Positions 3,702 to 61,534 of a DNA stretch of 64,000 nt are shown piece by piece (within the stretch, counting starts at the first letter, position 1; every line of letters starts with the position of its first letter). Position numbers and translations under genes: made by a program. The notes beneath the pieces are model-generated. The model ran no database searches. It saw nothing but the letters and a program-made list of their open reading frames with translations, and was not told where the DNA came from. Source of the DNA: an uncultured Planctomycetota bacterium (lineage in GTDB: Bacteria; Planctomycetota; Planctomycetia; Isosphaerales; Isosphaeraceae); assembly GCA_963845755.1 (NCBI GenBank), contig CAWJTV010000021.1:19239-83238 (forward strand). The letters are read 5' to 3'.

Positions 3702-6475
3702 ATGTGCACCCAACATCGGCAATCATCGATCGGGACGCGGCTCCCGCGGAGTTTCGGGCCTTTGGTCATCGTGCTGGTGGCGCTGTGGGTCACGGCCGGG
3801 CGCGGCGAGGACCAGCCGACGAGCCCGCCGCCGCAGGCGGTGCTGAACCTGGCCAACGGCGGTTACGCGGCCGGTGAGATCCGGCCGTCGACCCAACCGG
3901 CAGTCCTGCGCTGGCAGGCCGAGTCGTTCGTCTCGCCGTTCGATTTCGCCTGGAACGAGGTGAACGCCGTGCAGTGGCCGCCGCCGGCCACGCAGGCCAA
4001 ACCCGGGGGTGACTACTGCTTCGAGCTGGCCGCCGGTGACGTGTTGTTCGGCTCGCTGCTGGCCCTGGACGACCAGAGGGCCGAGCTGGATATACCGCGG
4101 CTGGGCCGCATCCACGTTCAACGATCCAACCTCCATCGCGTCTACCGATGGCGGGATGGTGCCGATTTGATCTATGTCGGTCCCAACGGCCTGGTCGGCT
4201 GGCGCGAGCCGACGGGCCAGAAGAACTGGCGCGACGACTCGGGCCAACCGATGACCGACCGGGAAGGCGCGTCGATCCGGGGCGACTTCGGGCTCCCCGA
4301 TCGCGCCAGTATCGAGTTCGAGATCTCCTGGAAATCCAAGCCGGACTTCGTTTTCGCCCTGGGCGTGGACGACAAGGAGAACACGGTCAAGCGGGCCTTC
4401 CGGTTCGAGGCCTGGGGCGGCGACCTGGTCGTCCAGCGCGAGCTCGAGCAGGAGGCGGACCTGGCGGTCGTGCAGGAGGTCGCGCCGGGCCCCGGCCGGA
4501 CCCATCTTCAGGCGTACCTCGACCAGGAAAAGGGGCGGATCCTGGTGTTCTCGCCCGGTGGCAAGCAGTTGGCCGACCTCAAGGTCGTCGGCACCAAGCC
4601 GACCGTGCTGACGGGGCTGTACCTGGCGAACATCCGGGGCGACGTGCGCCTGGAGTGGCTGAGAATCGGCCGATGGAACGGCGAGATTCCTCGCGAGGTG
4701 CGCACCGATAAGGCGCGGATCCACCGCGCCGACGGCTCGATCCTCTACGGTCAACTGACTGCCCTGGACTCCAGCTCGAAGGAATTCGTCTTCAAGACCG
4801 AGAAGGGTGAGTCTCGGGTCCCGGAGAAGCAGACTTCCAGCGTTTTCCTCTCGGTCCCCCGGGATGAGGCGCCTCGGATGATCCGAGCCGTCTACCAGGA
4901 CGGCACGCGCGTCAGCGGCGAGCTGAGCAAGGTGGAGGACGGCGCGCTCGCCATGACGGTACCCGGGATCCCGAAACCGTTGCGACTCCCGCTGGCCGGG
5001 CTCCGATCGCTGGTGGTCCTCCGCCACGACAACGCGGAGCTGAAGATCGCCTCGGCGGCCCGGCTCGAGATGGAGGGCATCCACCTGAGTGGCCGGTTGG
5101 TCAACGGACGCGAACGGCCCGACGCGAGCTGCCTGACGTGGCACCCCGTCGGCAGCGCGACCGCCAGTCCGTTGCGACCCGGGACGTCGGGAAAGATCGT
5201 CTATCGAGAGCCCCCCCACCGCGTACTCAGCAGGTCGCCGTGAACCAACGGCGTGTCCAGCAAAATGGTGCCGGCGGCTTCGCACTTCGCTTCGCCCAGG
5301 CCCTTGCCGAGGCCCCTTCGACCGATTCGACCGCGGAGCGCCGGTCGCTGTTCCTTCGCAGTGGAGACGTCATCCCTTCTGTGATCACCGGCATCAACGA
5401 AGAGGGCGTGACGTTCCAGACGTCGATGTCCAGCAGCACGTTCGTCTCCCACGACAAGGTCAAGGCCGTAGAGCTGGCCCCCGAGTCCACTCCGGTCGCG
5501 GTCCGGCTGAGTTCGACGAAGCGCGTGCGATTGCTTACGGTTCCCCGGATGCAGAAGGCCACGCCGCCTACCCACCTGATCCGCTCCAAGAACGGCGACT
5601 ACCTGCGCGGGCGGGTCGTGCTGATGGACCAGAAGCGGCTGCAGGTCGAGACCCGTCTGGAGAGCAAGGACCTGCCGCGCGACCGGATCTCGCGGATCAT
5701 CTGGATGCACGCCGACGAGATCGATCCCTCGAAGAAGCCGGTCCCGGCGTCGCGCGCCACCCGAGTGCAAGCGGTCCGCAACGACGGCGTCCGCGTCACG
5801 TTCTGGCCCGAACAGGTCGCGAACGACACGTTATCGGGCAAGAGCGACGTGCTTGGTGCCTGTCGCGTGCGCATCGGCGATGTGGACCAGTTCCTCTTCG
5901 GCAGCGGCATCGAGGCGGCGGCCGCCCTTCTCACTTACGGGCAATGGAAGCTCCAGAACGCCCCCGAGCCCACGCTCCCCTCCGACGGAGGCGCGGGCGG
6001 CGGCAACGGCACTGAGTCGCCACTGGTCGGCAAGCCGGCCCCCGACTTCGAGCTGGACCTCCTGGACGGGAAGCGGTTCCACCTGGCCGACGCCAAGGGA
6101 AAGGTCGTCGTGCTCGACTTCTGGGCTACCTGGTGCGGTCCCTGCATCCAGGCGATGCCGCAGGTCGAGAAGGCCGCCGGCTCGTTCCCGGAGAAGGATG
6201 TCCTACTTGTTGCCGTGAACCTCCAGGAATCGCCCGCGGAGATCAAGGCCATGATGGAGCGGCACCAGCTCCACGCGCCGCGGGTCGCCCTCGACAAGGA
6301 CGGCTTGATTGCCGAGAAGTACCAGGCCAACGCCATTCCCCAGACGGTCATCATCGGCCGCGAGGGGAACGTCGCGCGGTTGTTCGTCGGTGGCAGCTCG
6401 GACCTTGAAGACCGGCTCAAGGACGCAATCAAGGCCACACTCTCGGGCGAGAAGCCGGAAGAGACGAAGAAGTAG
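3702..6475 (+). CDS. Large exported protein with C-terminal TlpA/ResA-type thioredoxin domain (frameshift ~5215)
   Basis: ORFs 3702-5243 and 5138-6475 join at a C7 run; signal-peptide-like N-terminus; GKPAPDFEL...LDFWATWCGPC. Confidence 0.8.
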
Positions 6476-55568: not shown

Positions 55569-55781
55569 GAGTGCGTCCGGTGAACCACATCTTCAAAGCG
55601 GTTCACGGGCGTGAGATGATGTTCGGGGCACCGTCTTGATTCTTTCACTGTGCTCGGCGCACGCGATCATCCCGCGCTCGCGCCGGGCCGAGACGAACTT
55701 GGGGCGGGACAAACCTTGAGGGGCGCGCGCAATCGCCCCGCGCTCGTCCGGGGTGACGAGGAGCGCGGGGCTCGGGTGCGG

Positions 55782-57356
55782 TCACTCAGTCCCGTCGGCG
55801 CCGGCCTGGTGCAACTCCTGCCAGCGGTCCGGCAGCAGTTCGTCGATCCGCTTCGCCGGGTGCGTGCTGATCCGATCGAGCCCATCGCGGAGGTAAGCCT
55901 GGGGGTCGATCCCCAGATTCTTGCAGGTCGTGCACAAGCTCATCAACACGGCCGCCGTCTGGCCTCCCTGGTCGCTCCCCGCGAATAACCAGTTCTTCCG
56001 TCCCAGCGCCACGGGCTTGAACGCGCGCGCGCACGCACCGTTGTCCAGTTCGAGGAACCCGGCCTCCAACGGACGCTTCAGGGCCTCCCAATGGTTCAAG
56101 GCATACTGGATCGCTTCGCCGATCGGACTCTTGGGCAGAACCTTGGGCTGCTCGGCTTCCAGCCAGGCGTGAAACTTGTCGAAGATCGAACGCGATCGCT
56201 CGTTTCGCAGTTCGTGCCGGAACGCGACGAAGGCCTCGTAGTCCGCGGTCGTGCGCTTCTTGGCGTCGCGTTCGACGTCGTAGAGCAGGCTGATCCATGC
56301 CAGCGCCTGATGGGACCGTTGCGGGTTGACGGTCCGCGCCTCGTAGAACTTCCGTCGCGCGTGCATCATGCAGCCGACCTCGATAATCTCGCCCGACTTG
56401 TACAGGCCGTCGTAGGCCGAATAGGCGTCGGCCTGGAGATAACCCTGGAAGTCCTTGAAGATCTCCCGGGGCCCGGTGGCGCTGCGGTCCGGCGTGTAGC
56501 GATAGACCACGTAAGGATGGCCGCGGTCGCCGACGGAGACCCAGAGCCGGCCGGTCTTGATCCCCTTGCCGTCGTGGTCCTGCACCGGCACCGTCGTGTC
56601 GTCGTTCTGGACGACCCTGGAGCTGAGGATCTTCTTCAGCATCAGATCGACGATCGGCTTGAGCAGATCGGCGATCGTGGCCATCCAGTCGCACATCGTT
56701 GACCGCGACAACTCGACGCCCGAGCGATCGAGGATTCCCTCGAGGCGATAGAGCGGCAAGTGATCGGCATATTTGCTGACGGCGACGTAAGCCAGCAGCC
56801 CCGGGCCTGGCAGGCCCTTGTCGATCGGCTCGGGGAGCACGTCGGCGATCACGACGTTGGCCTGGCAGTCCTGGCAAGCGTACTTGGGGCGGATGTGTTC
56901 GAGGATGACCAGGCGGGCGGGGATGAATTCGAGTTGCTCGCGGACTTCCCGGCCGATGCAGGTGCGCTCGGCGCCGCAGTCGGGGCAAGTGCGTTGTTCG
57001 GGCGGGACGTCGTGCAAGACCGGCACTCGGGGCAGGCTCGCCGGCAACGGCTTGCGTCCGTGGCCCTTCTTCTGGGCCGCACTCGGAGCGGGCGTCGGGG
57101 CCGGGGCCGGCTCCGGGGTCGGGGCGGGTGTCGGCGCCGCCTCGGCCTGCTCCAGGATCTCCCGGGCGAAGAGCAAGAGCTGGGCCGGGTCGATCCGCTC
57201 CCCTTTGGGACCGTAGCGCTGGCGGAGGAGCTGCTCGAGCTGGTGCTGGAGCTTCTCGTTGAGATGGACCTGCTGGGCGAGCGACTTGAGCAGCTCACGG
57301 ATGAGCTGATGGGCCGCCTCCAGGTCGTCCGGGAGTGGGTCCGCGAGGGTGATCAT
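55782..57356 (-). CDS. tnpC: IS66 DDE transposase TnpC
   Basis: CPDCG, KYADHLPLYR, DDT, LQADAY, CMMHARRKF, DNG..AR..K, GRKNWLFAGS. Confidence 0.95.
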   Translation of the reverse strand: MITLADPLPDDLEAAHQLIRELLKSLAQQVHLNEKLQHQLEQLLRQRYGPKGERIDPAQLLLFAREILEQAEAAPTPAPTPEPAPAPTPAPSAAQKKGHGRKPLPASLPRVPVLHDVPPEQRTCPDCGAERTCIGREVREQLEFIPARLVILEHIRPKYACQDCQANVVIADVLPEPIDKGLPGPGLLAYVAVSKYADHLPLYRLEGILDRSGVELSRSTMCDWMATIADLLKPIVDLMLKKILSSRVVQNDDTTVPVQDHDGKGIKTGRLWVSVGDRGHPYVVYRYTPDRSATGPREIFKDFQGYLQADAYSAYDGLYKSGEIIEVGCMMHARRKFYEARTVNPQRSHQALAWISLLYDVERDAKKRTTADYEAFVAFRHELRNERSRSIFDKFHAWLEAEQPKVLPKSPIGEAIQYALNHWEALKRPLEAGFLELDNGACARAFKPVALGRKNWLFAGSDQGGQTAAVLMSLCTTCKNLGIDPQAYLRDGLDRISTHPAKRIDELLPDRWQELHQAGADGTE

Positions 57357-57395
57357 ACCCTATACTACGTTGACGGGTGCTCGATTGTTGGCGCA

Positions 57396-57582
57396 TTATG
57401 CTCCTGTCGGTAGATTATTCTCCGAATTTCGAAGGGGAGTGGCGGGCCGCGAGTAGCGGACGCGCCGTCGGGCCTTGTCCAGATCGATGCCGGCCAGGAG
57501 GGCGGCGAGTTCGGCGGTGGTCATCTCGACGCGATCGGCCGCCGCGTCCGGGATGCGGAAGGTGCCGCGTTCGAGCCTCTTG
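57396..57582 (-). pseudogene. tnpB: IS66 TnpB 3' half
   Basis: KRLERGTF...AELAALLAGIDL. Confidence 0.88.
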
Positions 57583-57672
57583 ATGCTGGCATCACAGGAC
57601 CCTCGTTCTTGTGGCGTTACACAAATCCTGAGACGTTGGGCTACTGCCGCCACGAATCGGCGGCCTCTCTTG

Positions 57673-59852
57673 CTACCGGTCGGGACGGTCCTTGGGAACG
57701 ACCAACTCAGGGTGCCGGGCGGCGATCCAGGAGTTCTTTCGTCTGGCCAGTTGTCGCAGGCGACGAACCTCGTCCTTGTCGGCCCACACGATCAGATGCT
57801 TTCCCGAAGGCGTACGCCGCGAATGGACCCAACCCTGCTTGATCCAATAATGGACCTTCTGGGCGATGACGCCGAGTTTCCCGGCCAAGTCGGGGATCCA
57901 CCACTCGTCCTGGCCGACGAGGTCGTCGCGGAACAGTTCTCCGACCAGCCCAAGTTCACGGACCAACGCCCCGATCGTTCCCGCCGTGAACACGCCGCGA
58001 CGGCGCGGCGGGACGAAGCCCTCGGCATTGAGCCGCGCGGCGATCTGCGACAGGTGAAGTCCTTCTCGATGGAGTTGCTTGATTCGTTCCGTGAGGCGTC
58101 GAAAATCCTTCAATTGCTCATACCTGCCGACTGGCCTCGCGACCTGCTGTTGGGTTGTCATGCCGCCGAGCCAAACGATCGTTACCTCGTTGAGCTCAGT
58201 CGCCTTGTCGGCCACGACAATGACCCGCTCCACCGCGCAGCGCACGATCTGCTTGCGATCCATCGCCGACGTGCCTGGTGCGTGCCAGAGCGCGGCGACG
58301 CTCTCGGAGAGCGATCGAATCCGTTGGCGATCGGCGTCGTTCAGCGTCGCCGGCAGTCTCGTCAGGAACCGATGGTAATCCTCCTCCGTTTGACGCTGCT
58401 TCTTCAGCGCGTCCTCCCACCGCGCCTCGAGTGTCCGCGCCACGAGTCGGTTCTCGGGCTCCACGGCCTGATACTGCCGCTCGGCCCTCTCGACCTCCTG
58501 GCGTGCGCGTTCCAGAGTCTGACGCCAATGGTCGTGGAGGCGCTTCGCTCTCGCTCGGCGTTCTCGATCGCGCGTAGGCTCAGGTCCAGCGCAGCGGGCT
58601 CCAACGCGCGGAGCACTTCCTTCGCGACCAGGTCGTCCAGCGTCTTTGCCGAGATGCACCCGCACGGCTCGTCCAGGGCCAGCCGCCAATACTCGCCGCA
58701 GTGATAGCCGGGCTTCTTGTCGGCCTTGTATCGCGTCGTCATGTGGCGGCCGCATTTCCCACAGACGACCAGGCCGGGCAGCAAGGCCTCGCCGCGTTTG
58801 GGCACGCCCCGCGTGTCGTGGAGCGATCGATTCTGTTTGAGGCGTTCCTGATTCGCGAGATAGCGATCCCAGCTAATGTACGCTGGGAGCCGATCCGGCA
58901 GGAACACGGCCAACTCCTCGGGCGGCACGAACCACTTGCCGCCTTCGGCTCGACCCGTCGTGGGATTCTTCGTCCCCGCGCGATGTAGGCCATAAGCGTA
59001 TGCCCCCGCATAGATGGGGTGTCGCAAGATCGACAGGACTCGACTGGGAGAGGCTGGCTTCCACTCCAGCTCCCCAATGCGCCCACCGCGATGACGGCGA
59101 AATCCCAGTTGCAGGTTGTTCACGACCAGGTAACGGAAGACCGCGTAGGCGGAACCGAGTTCCTCGAACTTCTCGAACACCAACTGAATCATTCCACGCG
59201 CCTGCTCGTCAGGCTCTTGAATGATCTCGCCCGTGGCCGTCTTGAGGTATCCCAGCGGAACGGCCAGGAACAGCTCGCCGCGCTCCGCTTTGTTCCGACT
59301 GCCTCGAAGCAAACGATTGTACATAGTAATCAATTCGTATTCGCTCATTGCGCTTTTCATGCCAAGGAGGAGACGATCGTTACTGTCCAAGGCATCGTAG
59401 ACGCCATCTTGATCGCATAGCAGGGTGCGAAAGATGCCGCAGACGTCGATAAGACGATGCCATTCGGTATTCGACCGCGACACCCTGCTAAGCTCCAACC
59501 CCAGCACGATCCCCACGTGGTTCAAGCTCACTTCCGTCATCAACCGCTGGAAGCCCGTGCGATGGTCGGTCAACTTGCCGCCGTGGCCCTGATCCTCGTC
59601 GATGATCACCACCCGCTCTGCGGGCCAACCGAGCCGTTGCGCGAACTGCGCCAGAGCATACTGCCGTTCGCGAGACTCGCGGTTCTCGAGGACTTGCTGC
59701 GGCGTTGACTGCCGCACGTACACGATCGCGAGTCGATCGAGATGCCGATCGCCAATCTTCGAGCTCGACCTCTGGCCGAAGGTGGAGGTCGATGGAGTCT
59801 CGTCGATTGATCTGTCCGTGCGATTGACGGCCCGTGCATCACGAGATTTCAT
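57673..59852 (-). CDS. Large serine recombinase (resolvase + recombinase + Zn ribbon + coiled coil + C-terminal extension), frameshift ~58545
   Basis: YVRQS, ELSRVSR, ILRHPIYAG, CGKCG..YHC..C, AERQYQAVEPENRLVA. Confidence 0.92.
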
Positions 59853-60036
59853 CGCGCACCTCCTGAGCGGTGCGAGGCGCGCCGAGTTGTCGAGTCACGA
59901 TGTCGCTGAGGGTGAGCAGCGTTCGTTGACGCTGCTCGTCCGTCAGTCGGCTCCAGAGTTGGTCCAGCACCGACGGCCGAACGACCGACGTGGCGCGGGG
60001 GGAGCAACGAGTCCGGCGTCTCGCGACATGGGGCAC
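59839..60036 (-). CDS. Small ORF overlapping the recombinase start
   Basis: SD AGGAGGT; LDQLWSRLTDEQRQRTLLTLSDIVTRQL...EVRDEIS. Confidence 0.6.
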   Translation of the reverse strand: MPHVARRRTRCSPRATSVVRPSVLDQLWSRLTDEQRQRTLLTLSDIVTRQLGAPRTAQEVRDEIS

Positions 60037-60163
60037 CTCCTTGGATCACGGGGTGTTGAGCTTCGATCCATTCCGCCAGCCGCATCAGGCCGGCCAGCGC
60101 GATTATGGGGGTGTCCGACGATTCCTGTAAAGTCGAGAGGATGGGGGCAGTCTTACTCGTACT

Positions 60164-60371
60164 TCTTGGCCCAGACGGCCAGGCCATCGCGATCCCAGTA
60201 CAGGATCTTGATGCGGTCGCGGCGCTTGTTGACGAAGACGAAGAGATGACCGGAGAGGGGATCTAGCGCCAGGCTGCCTGATGCCAGGGCGGCCAGGCCG
60301 TCAAAGCTCTTGCGCATGTCGGCCGGCTGTTTGGCGAGATAGACGCGGACCGCGGCGCTCAGTCCGAACAT
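60164..60371 (-). pseudogene. tnpB: IS66 TnpB 5' half
   Basis: MFGL...DMRKSFDGL...LFVFVNKRRDRIKILYWDRDGLAVWAK. Confidence 0.92.
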
Positions 60372-60724
60372 GGGCGTCCCTCCACGACCGCGATGAGATG
60401 GCGGAGGGTCAGGGGGTCGAATCCGGGGGCGACGGCGATCCGACGTCCGTTGGAGAGGATGAGTTCGAGGTGGGGTCCCGAGGCGGCGCTCGGCGGGATG
60501 GGATCGGGAAGGATAGTGACCGGGAGGAAATGGCGGTCGGCACTGGCGAAAGGACGATCGTCGCTGGGAGTGCGATCGGCCGGGGCGGGCTGGTAGAGAT
60601 GCTTTCGGAAGGAGTGAAGCGAGATTTGGCGAAGGCGGCAGAACTCGGCTTGAGTCAGACCGCTCCTGCGGAAATCGTTGAGGAGGGCATTCCATCGTAG
60701 ATCGATGGTTCGGCTTCGAGACAC
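60359..60724 (-). CDS. tnpA: IS66 accessory protein TnpA
   Basis: RSGLTQAEFCR, FLPV, LELILSNGRRIAV..GFD; overlaps tnpB start. Confidence 0.88.
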   Translation of the reverse strand: MSRSRTIDLRWNALLNDFRRSGLTQAEFCRLRQISLHSFRKHLYQPAPADRTPSDDRPFASADRHFLPVTILPDPIPPSAASGPHLELILSNGRRIAVAPGFDPLTLRHLIAVVEGRPCSD

Positions 60725-60817
60725 GGCGTGATCTCCCTGACGGGACCACTGGCCCCGACAGCACTATCATCGCGGGGAGTCACGCCGCTTTGTAGATGCA
60801 CTTCACCGGACGGACAC

Positions 60818-61348: not shown

Positions 61349-61511
61349 GTGAGTTGGGGGTCAAACTTGGGTGAGTTGGGGGTCAAACTTTGTTTTTGTT
61401 TTTTGTGGGTGAGTTGGGGTCAAACTTTGTTTTTGTGGGTGAGTTGGGGTCAAACTTTGTTTTTTGGGGGTCGGTGGGTGAGTTGGGGTCAAACTTTGTT
61501 TTTTGGGGGTC
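61349..61511 (+). repeat. Five tandem copies of GTGAGTTGGGG(G)TCAAACTT with variable T/G tails
   Basis: Unit starts 61349, 61371, 61409, 61439, 61478. Confidence 0.92.
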
Positions 61512-61534
61512 GGGGTGCAGACCGAGTTTCCCGT

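Follow-up and report, generated by a model that had tools for sequence, protein, structure and literature searches.

The window analysed here is a 64,000-nt stretch of DNA from an uncultured planctomycete of the Isosphaeraceae (GenBank assembly GCA_963845755.1, contig CAWJTV010000021.1, positions 19,239 to 83,238 of the forward strand). It carries an insertion sequence of the IS66 family in which the tnpB gene is interrupted by a 2586-bp insert encoding a large serine recombinase (LSR), and this insert, which is probably a minimal integrative element that targets tnpB, is the subject of the present work. The composite of the two was delimited by blastn against the genome at 55569..60817 on the minus strand and measures 5249 bp, of which 2663 bp belong to the IS66-family element and 2586 bp to the insert. 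The genes and element features described below also lie on the minus strand.

Organization of the locus

The tnpA gene of the IS66 element (60359..60724) was identified from the list of open reading frames (ORFs) as a 121-aa frame located upstream of tnpB. Its product gave no Pfam match, and tblastn matches to it were observed to adjoin tnpB in three related loci (L035, L036 and L052). The tnpB gene is found in two parts. The 5' part (60165..60371) holds codons 1-69, matches positions 2-64 of the 101 positions of the TnpB_IS66 profile and ends with the lysine codon AAG at 60167-60165; with the insert in place, its frame reads three codons into the insert and then meets a stop. The 3' part (57396..57581) starts with a lysine codon at 57581-57579, continues with RLERGTF... 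to its stop and matches profile positions 60-100. The tnpC gene (55782..57356) encodes a 524-aa DDE transposase with the Pfam domains DDE_Tnp_IS66, zf-IS66, LZ_Tnp_IS66 and DDE_Tnp_IS66_C. The gene order tnpA-tnpB-tnpC, the DDE_Tnp_IS66 transposase, the imperfect terminal inverted repeats and the 8-bp duplication place the host in the IS66 family.

The insert occupies 57583..60168, where the boundary can be placed anywhere inside a 5-bp repeat that reads TCTTG on the plus strand at 57578-57582 and again at 60164-60168. Deletion of 57583-60168 (2586 bp) in silico gave a single open frame for a 129-aa TnpB, as an earlier reading made from the letters alone (the sequence-only reading) had reported, and the two Pfam halves meet at the break. 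The insert contains a gene with Resolvase, Recombinase and Zn_ribbon_recom domains together with a small upstream ORF. No repeat joining both termini was found among the 25 longest inverted-repeat pairs listed and no DDE, other transposase, phage or conjugation domain was found by Pfam in the insert ORFs scanned, which agrees with the earlier description of an insert free of terminal inverted repeats, phage genes and conjugation genes.

The genome assembly (14.27 Mb in 49 contigs, 88% complete) is of a kind in which nested structures might arise as artefacts of a noisy long-read metagenome bin, and copies of the insert were observed to differ mostly by single-base indels that resemble consensus errors. 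The nested structure is not an assembly artefact because a 3555-nt contig of the public run X1 covers 57139-60692, including both junctions, with only two letters differing from the window. The artefact explanation, to which we give practically no weight, is also contradicted by the 71 loci of the same tnpB type found in other assemblies, and contigs of independent runs cover both junctions. Among the matches listed, 20 public runs matched the stretch; all were soil or rhizosphere metagenomes that matched as contigs and none was an RNA run. The runs X1-X4 cover most of the stretch.

Large serine recombinase gene

The LSR gene extends over 57673..59852, as defined by its Pfam domains and by an intact copy on contig C20 (L001:1546-3726), and encodes 726 aa when intact. 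Pfam matches were obtained to Resolvase (residues 42-193, E 5.5e-16), Recombinase PF07508 (221-341) and Zn_ribbon_recom PF13408 (357-413), and the start motif of the catalytic domain, VRQS, corresponds to residues 46-49 of the intact copy. An N-terminal resolvase domain with the serine nucleophile followed by C-terminal Recombinase and zinc ribbon domains is the arrangement of the LSR class. Residues 430-726 matched no Pfam family above the cut-off, and the only PDB entry found by sequence was 3guv, a 167-aa resolvase fragment (E 2.7e-5). The gene is preceded by a ribosome site of its own (AGGAGG-ATG).

The copy in the window lacks one base after 58545. This base is present in the other eight genomic copies (alignment column 1628), and an extra G was observed at the same place in contigs of the public runs X1, X2 and X5. 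The frameshift is peculiar to this copy and is not part of the family biology. We noticed that the nine insert copies differ mainly by scattered singleton one-base indels, where the LSR frame is broken in eight of the nine, the C20 copy being the one with the uninterrupted 726-aa reading, and the tnpC frame is broken in the C20 copy. Such a pattern is typical of long-read consensus errors and apparent pseudogenes in this assembly need to be treated with caution.

Target specificity and crossover site

A total of 102 loci with close relatives of the element was collected, 24 from species-representative genomes and 78 from metagenome contigs, and the LSR is 67-87% identical to that of the window in 95 of them. 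Junctions were located by two conserved end motifs and then read. Where the contig ended or no anchor motif was located, the junction was left uncalled (33 of 102 upstream and 44 of 102 downstream junctions), and the right junctions of L073 and L078, where the anchor motif had matched elsewhere, were left out of the counts.

The insertion site was found to be highly conserved. Of the upstream junctions of elements with an LSR of at least 67% identity, 69 were readable; 57 of these are of the tnpB type and have an AA core, eight have a TA core and four have an AA core elsewhere (L043, L044, L068 and L115), while the 58 readable downstream junctions divide into 48, seven and three respectively. 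At least one junction was readable in 85 loci, of which 71 are tnpB-type. Both junctions were located in 34 loci and the median length from AA to AA is 2587 bp. The common insertion codon is the lysine of a W-x-K-R-L-E stretch in tnpB, and all 57 of the AA-core tnpB insertions run in the same direction as tnpB. Pfam TnpB_IS66 was matched by 57 of 67 upstream flanks (12 of 13 and 45 of 54), each match ending at profile position 62; of the short flanks on the downstream side, 13 were scanned and four gave a match at E 0.01, in every case starting at position 62. Together with the TnpB rebuilt on removal of the insert, this is the pattern of a conservative insertion. The carriers of the tnpB-inserted element are dozens of other soil and water bacteria.

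The mapping of homolog flanks to the KRLE codons had been put forward by the sequence-only reading as a check on its proposal that the attB site lies in IS66 tnpB. The junction counts bear this out for the main target, but the targeting is not absolute, as is seen from the four AA-core upstream junctions outside tnpB and from sister elements with a TA core that use a ligase gene. The 3' part of the split gene has no in-frame start in 21 of 34 unique downstream ends, and therefore the split tnpB is probably non-functional.

The letters common to both junctions were observed to vary from two to five among the relatives, and the only invariant part is AA, the first two bases of the lysine codon. 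AA was present at 61 of 61 upstream and 51 of 51 downstream junctions of the AA group, and the shared letters shrink to AA alone in, for example, L035, L043 and L051. From this we infer that the crossover probably takes place at the dinucleotide AA (60167-60166 and 57581-57580 in the window). The 5-bp CAAGA, which the sequence-only reading had taken as the core, would then be a local coincidence of the codons on either side, GCC and AGG.

The sister subgroup with a TA core (L074, L075, L082, L085, L107-L110, L122, L127 and L133) has an LSR that is 68-73% identical to that of the window and sits in an ATP-dependent DNA ligase gene. As an example, the Pfam domain DNA_ligase_A_M was found upstream in L075 and L127 and DNA_ligase_A_C downstream in L074. 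Within the ligase gene the elements of L074, L075, L108 and L127 point one way and those of L107 and L109 the opposite way. A palindromic central dinucleotide removes orientation control in serine recombination. The TA group occurring in both orientations and the AA group in only one is what a central dinucleotide would be expected to produce, and this contrast places the crossover at the dinucleotide proposed above. In addition, dyad symmetry was observed at 18 of 30 consensus positions in the element-side arms, which form two imperfectly symmetric half-sites as in an attP, compared with seven of 30 in the host-side arms.

The 5-bp direct repeat that flanks the insert in the window is also what a transposase-like cut-and-paste movement would leave if it duplicated a 5-bp target, CAAGA. 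We consider this extremely unlikely since the insert has no transposase domain, no terminal inverted repeats occur among the pairs listed, and the common junction letters vary in number down to AA alone in the three loci named above. Furthermore, removal of one repeat copy rebuilds the frame exactly, as conservative recombination does.

Composite copies in the genome

Nine copies of the insert were found in the genome. The composite is present in eight copies (seven full and one partial) that are 99.5-99.9% identical and end at the equivalents of 55569 and 60817 by blastn; the eight near-identical inserts have the same flanks on both sides, and the downstream junction, on the 3' tnpB side, is identical in all nine. 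No empty copy of the IS66 element of the window was found in the genome assembly, where all eight are filled. Duplications of 8 bp at the composite ends are clean on contig C22, exchanged between two inverted copies on C20 and offset by one base on C19, and the composite of the window itself has no 8-bp duplication at its ends. TnpB is required for IS66 transposition. The eight composite copies and the IS66-type duplications at their ends support the view, raised by the sequence-only reading as hitchhiking, that IS66 carries the element along in spite of the split tnpB, and that the composite has in this way spread to eight places.

The two inverted C20 composites are located at G000:C20:715080-720330 and G000:C20:738507-743758 (G000 is the genome of the window). 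Their flanking 8-bp duplications are swapped, which points to an inversion of the ~18-kb segment between the two copies by homologous recombination.

The ninth copy, on contig C13, is diverged and truncated, at 97.2% identity in the element and 92.5-96.0% in the IS arms. In this region (L002, G000:C13:343105-351972) the diverged composite abuts a second copy that starts at the equivalent of window position 56499. The piece that is absent from the arrangement (55569-56495) sits on contig C9 (G000:C9:1396-2321), and the whole may reflect either a rearranged locus or a break in the assembly. The sole other tnpB in the genome is also on C9 (L003, G000:C9:4503-4811); it is 55% identical at the protein level and is unoccupied.

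Independent mobility

Comparison of elements within single metagenome-assembled genomes (MAGs) separates the history of the element from that of its host. In the MAG with L035 and L036 the elements are 99.3% identical, while the IS66 arms share 81.9% identity on the upstream side and show no match on the downstream side. In another (L034 and L037) the elements are 99.7% identical and the arms 75-81%, and in a third (L043, L044 and L046) elements that are 99.9% identical occupy three contexts, and that of L046 alone is tnpB. The within-MAG identity of the elements is 99.3-99.96% overall, and the IS66 arms are 75-82% identical, not alignable, or replaced by sequence outside IS66. Against the proteins of the window, the N-terminal halves of TnpB are 42-67% identical and TnpC is 35-60% identical, compared with 67-87% for the LSRs, and 50 of 62 host-side arm sequences are distinct. 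As judged from these comparisons, the recurrence of almost the same element within one MAG, both in diverged IS66 copies and outside IS66, shows that the element moves independently and prefers the tnpB site.

The copies in the window's own genome, taken by themselves, would also fit a recombinase and a small ORF that were acquired once as passenger genes of one IS66 variant and are not self-mobile. Every copy of this IS66 is filled with identical junctions, the diverged C13 copy differs in element and IS arms alike, and the composite carries IS66-type duplications. However, the near-identical elements in dissimilar or non-IS66 arms of single MAGs contradict this explanation, and the lower identity of TnpC compared with the LSR is also against it. 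We regard it as very unlikely.

Upstream coding region

The region between the upstream junction and the LSR gene contains a promoter-like site, TTTACA-18-CATAAT, at 60102..60131 (10 of 12 matches; three sites were found where 0.4 were expected). The anchor CTTTACAG, which contains the first hexamer of this site, was found in 72 of the 102 related loci with one mismatch allowed. An unshifted frame of ~105 codons (59849..60164) is open from the junction to a TGA that overlaps the ATG of the LSR gene. The 65-aa ORF that the sequence-only reading had taken as the second gene of the insert (59839..60036) shows coding-type conservation only in its C-terminal ~45 aa (LDQLW..LTDEQRQRTL..), and the ORF as drawn is only part of the upstream coding region.

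A codon-position test was carried out on 54 unique elements. The unshifted frame (..PIIALAGL.RLAEW..QGG.PC..) has a synonymous share of 0.56 at ~nt 60-90 after the junction and of 0.33 from there to ~nt 150. At nt 210-300 it is the +1 frame that is conserved, with a share of 0.42-0.49 compared with at most 0.29 in the other frames. The unshifted frame is open from the junction to the Shine-Dalgarno region in all 54 elements, compared with two and 21 of 54 for the other frames. Over its full length it has no stop before the LSR start in all but one element (L135), and in 48 of 54 its stop lies within ATGA or GTGATG at that start.

In 14 of 54 cases the part of the unshifted frame inside the element is free of ATG, GTG and TTG, and the host sequence likewise lacks a start in that frame in 23 of the 55 different contexts of integration. 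A conserved start codon is present only at the opposite end of the element, ten bases from the crossover, as an ATG (or an adjacent GTG). In the window this end reads GAGGG, seven nucleotides and ATG (57590..57604), directed outward across the downstream junction and in frame with the upstream frame when the ends are joined in a circle; the right ends listed retain the ATG or the GTG beside it. A similar arrangement was observed in the G025 lineage, which has an LSR 43-49% identical and a different target. There, a 110-codon frame without methionine runs from the junction to the LSR start (L137:2210-2539) and the far end carries GGAGGG-ATG (L137, ~4700-4730). These features suggest an upstream gene that would be complete only in the excised circle.

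The change from one conserved frame to the other falls at a run of 7-9 C that directly precedes GCGC. In the window this run (59997..60002, G on the plus strand) has six residues, and it is here that the conserved frame changes by +1. The +1 offset was found in 42 of 46 readable unique elements (for example L038, L039, L050 and L051), short-read assemblies included; of the four exceptions, which stay in frame, three belong to long-read MAGs. The run has seven C in the reference copy L001 and in the contigs of X1, X5 and X6; these contigs differ from the window at 59993/59996 with the net length unchanged. The conservation of the offset suggests programmed frameshifting or transcriptional slippage, and the run may yield two products, one that ends on the ATG of the LSR gene and another with a helical C-terminal part. 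An AlphaFold2 (AF2) model of the 65-aa ORF consists of two helices with a predicted local distance difference test score (pLDDT) of 88-97 over residues 21-50. The small upstream protein matched no Pfam family, and its G025 form gave no usable Atlas hit.

Proposed mechanism

Taking the above together, we put the probability at about 0.85 that the insert is a minimal integrative element made up of attP-derived ends, a promoter, a short upstream coding region and one LSR, with IS66 tnpB as its target. From the chemistry of the LSR class, the recombinase would recombine two sites, attP on a circular form and the W-x-K-R-L-E stretch of tnpB as attB. A crossover at the AA of the lysine codon would give a conservative entry without target duplication and in the same direction as tnpB, and the element would afterwards be copied along with IS66. 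Expression may be wired to the circular state, where the ribosome site and ATG of the downstream end would be joined across attP to the ~105-codon frame, and the run of seven C would divert some ribosomes or transcripts by +1 into the helical C-terminal part. Excision would be expected to restore tnpB exactly, and the insert might in addition serve as an off-switch of IS66 that can be excised, as the sequence-only reading had raised.

Several observations weigh against this reading. What is seen in this genome fits a single old insertion after which the composite transposed, and there is no sign of recent integration; the ninth copy on C13 cannot separate a second integration from co-divergence, and the DNA of the unoccupied C9 tnpB fits the target consensus well. 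Three elements with an AA core (L043, L044 and L115) lie in unrelated sequence, and L068, also of the AA group, has a DNA polymerase A gene upstream and a tnpB-type flank downstream, which suggests a rearrangement between copies. No circle junction or exact empty site was found in contigs of X1, X2, X5 and X6, where assemblies drop rare forms. The first 60 nt after the junction, a stretch in which the att arm and the promoter also fall, have no synonymous excess (0.17-0.21). Transcripts from the promoter-like site would begin ~75 nt inside the unshifted frame, and the LSR gene has its own ribosome site besides the circle-completed frame. Lastly, no recombination directionality factor was identified, the small upstream protein having given no Pfam, Atlas or usable structural lead.

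The exact insertion, the constant position and an excision that would restore tnpB could also be read as a domesticated developmental or regulatory switch of IS66, in which tnpB stays off until the LSR excises the element. The 21 of 34 downstream ends that leave the C-terminal half of TnpB without a start fit such an arrangement. On the other hand, the composite reached eight copies with tnpB split and no restored copy is present in the assembly, no excision was seen in the contigs of the four runs, and the same element enters non-IS66 sites. The sister lineages hit unrelated genes, which fits a selfish element that chooses conserved sequences. A switch is therefore considered unlikely compared with a self-mobile integrative element.

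An integrative element of this kind would be a mobile element that is specialised on another mobile element by site-specific recombination. It would multiply free when the insertion sequence transposes and uses a codon which its host cannot easily change, adding a layer to how insertion sequences get invaded and perhaps restrained. Made up of a single recombinase, a short region upstream of it and end sequences of ~60 bp, it would also be near the smallest self-contained LSR system. Its natural orthologs number in the dozens and come with attL/attR pairs, from which attB and attP are deducible for each. The split frame together with the frame change at C7 suggests a translational coupling of integrase expression to the circular state.

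Related lineages

LSR homologs of 35-55% identity were found in 22 of 60 related genomes, and IS66 genes were absent from the flanks of all 29 loci fetched for homologs in this range. The relatives in G025 (L136-L139) and those at L005 and L031, with LSRs 43-55% identical, are 2.5-2.7-kb repeats. They interrupt DDE_5 (IS701-like) transposase genes, where the break falls after the R-W codons and before I-E..F...K.

The flanks of other homologs (34-55% identity) are often mobile-element genes, with DDE_Tnp_1, DDE_3, Nterm_IS4, ISL3 and partial IstB_IS21 among those observed. For example, a group II intron reverse transcriptase is apparently split in L141 (G000:C11:962700-969700) of this same genome. 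Further distant paralogs and homologs lie near or apparently inside group II reverse transcriptase, partial istB and transposase genes (L140, G000:C48:14900-22100; L007, L018, L020, L022, L026 and L033). These flanks are only suggestive of mobile genes as targets of the 34-55% homologs.

A wider interpretation would be that of a clade of planctomycete LSR mini-elements of ~2.5-2.6 kb that parasitise mobile elements by using conserved coding motifs as attB. The targets shown or suggested are the K-R-L-E site of IS66 tnpB and the site between R-W and I-E in IS701-like DDE_5 genes, and group II reverse transcriptase and istB would probably be added to these. In the same joint proposal the elements would sense their own state, since integration would divide the upstream gene and only the excised circle would rebuild it, start codon included; the +1 shift at C7 would set the product ratio, and one lineage has moved to the DNA ligase gene. 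As a whole we hold it only tentatively, at a little less than even chances. The sister lineages, in which a one-letter change of the core from AA to TA goes together with a different target, provide a natural series for the evolution of LSR target choice.

Comparison with known systems

The clostridial transposons Tn4451/Tn4453 (TnpX) and Tn5397 (TndX) resemble the present element in that they move by an LSR alone through an excised circle, which is inferred here, and with a 2-bp crossover. These transposons measure 6-21 kb, carry cargo genes, use a GA dinucleotide and have relaxed targets. In contrast, the element described here is 2.6 kb without cargo, has an AA crossover and is directed to one codon of one gene family, and what its circle would provide is a start codon and not a promoter. 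According to the text of a preprint, the Pfam domain DUF4368 is present in most multi-targeting LSRs (10.1101/2021.11.05.467528). No DUF4368 match was found by Pfam in the LSR of the window, which together with the AA crossover and the one main target sets it apart from the Tn4451 type.

The skin element (SpoIVCA, sigK) and SPbeta (spsM) are gene-interrupting elements that restore the host gene when their LSR excises them. The likeness lies in a coding sequence that is split exactly and would be rebuilt on excision. However, those elements are prophage-derived, 48-135 kb in length and found in chromosomal genes of one host lineage, whereas here a two-gene element resides in a gene of a mobile element and is spread over many diverged hosts. 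IS607 also is an IS-sized element moved by a serine recombinase. Its TnpA is a small serine recombinase (~200 aa) with an N-terminal DNA-binding domain, little target choice and none of the LSR C-terminal domains, unlike the 726-aa enzyme with Recombinase and Zn_ribbon_recom domains and a fixed target that was found here. Bacterial group II introns reside in other mobile elements, and splicing at the RNA level leaves the host gene functional. The present element is likewise selfish DNA that lands harmlessly in genes of other mobile elements and spreads along with them, but it acts at the DNA level only and tnpB stays split unless the element excises.

In a survey of phage and ICE serine integrases for attachment sites it has been described that LSR clusters target one gene family at a conserved site and that related LSRs keep or switch targets (Durrant et al., 10.1101/2021.11.05.467528, in the portion of the text examined). 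An insertion sequence gene is not named as an LSR target in that portion, in which IS66 was not specifically looked for, and the supplements may list such targets. A paper on phage WO in which the relevant terms occur deals with a different subject. No description of an LSR element in IS66 tnpB was found in the full-text literature searched, a provisional result as most subscription journals and ISfinder lie outside its coverage.

Minor observations

A contig of run X6 derived from a related IS66 (~93% alike) covers 57006-57404 and 60200-60310 and skips 57405-60199, with 13 other letters in between. It was considered as a restored site and rejected, as it is without the insert but also without the 3' part of tnpB. 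A tblastn match that made the downstream end of the insert resemble TnpB residues 41-68 was dropped, the ungapped DNA identity being 41 of 120, about background. Just beyond the end of the IS66 element, at 61349-61513 of the window, imperfect tandem repeats were observed with units of 20-39 nt built on GTGAGTTGGGGTCAAAC and runs of T.

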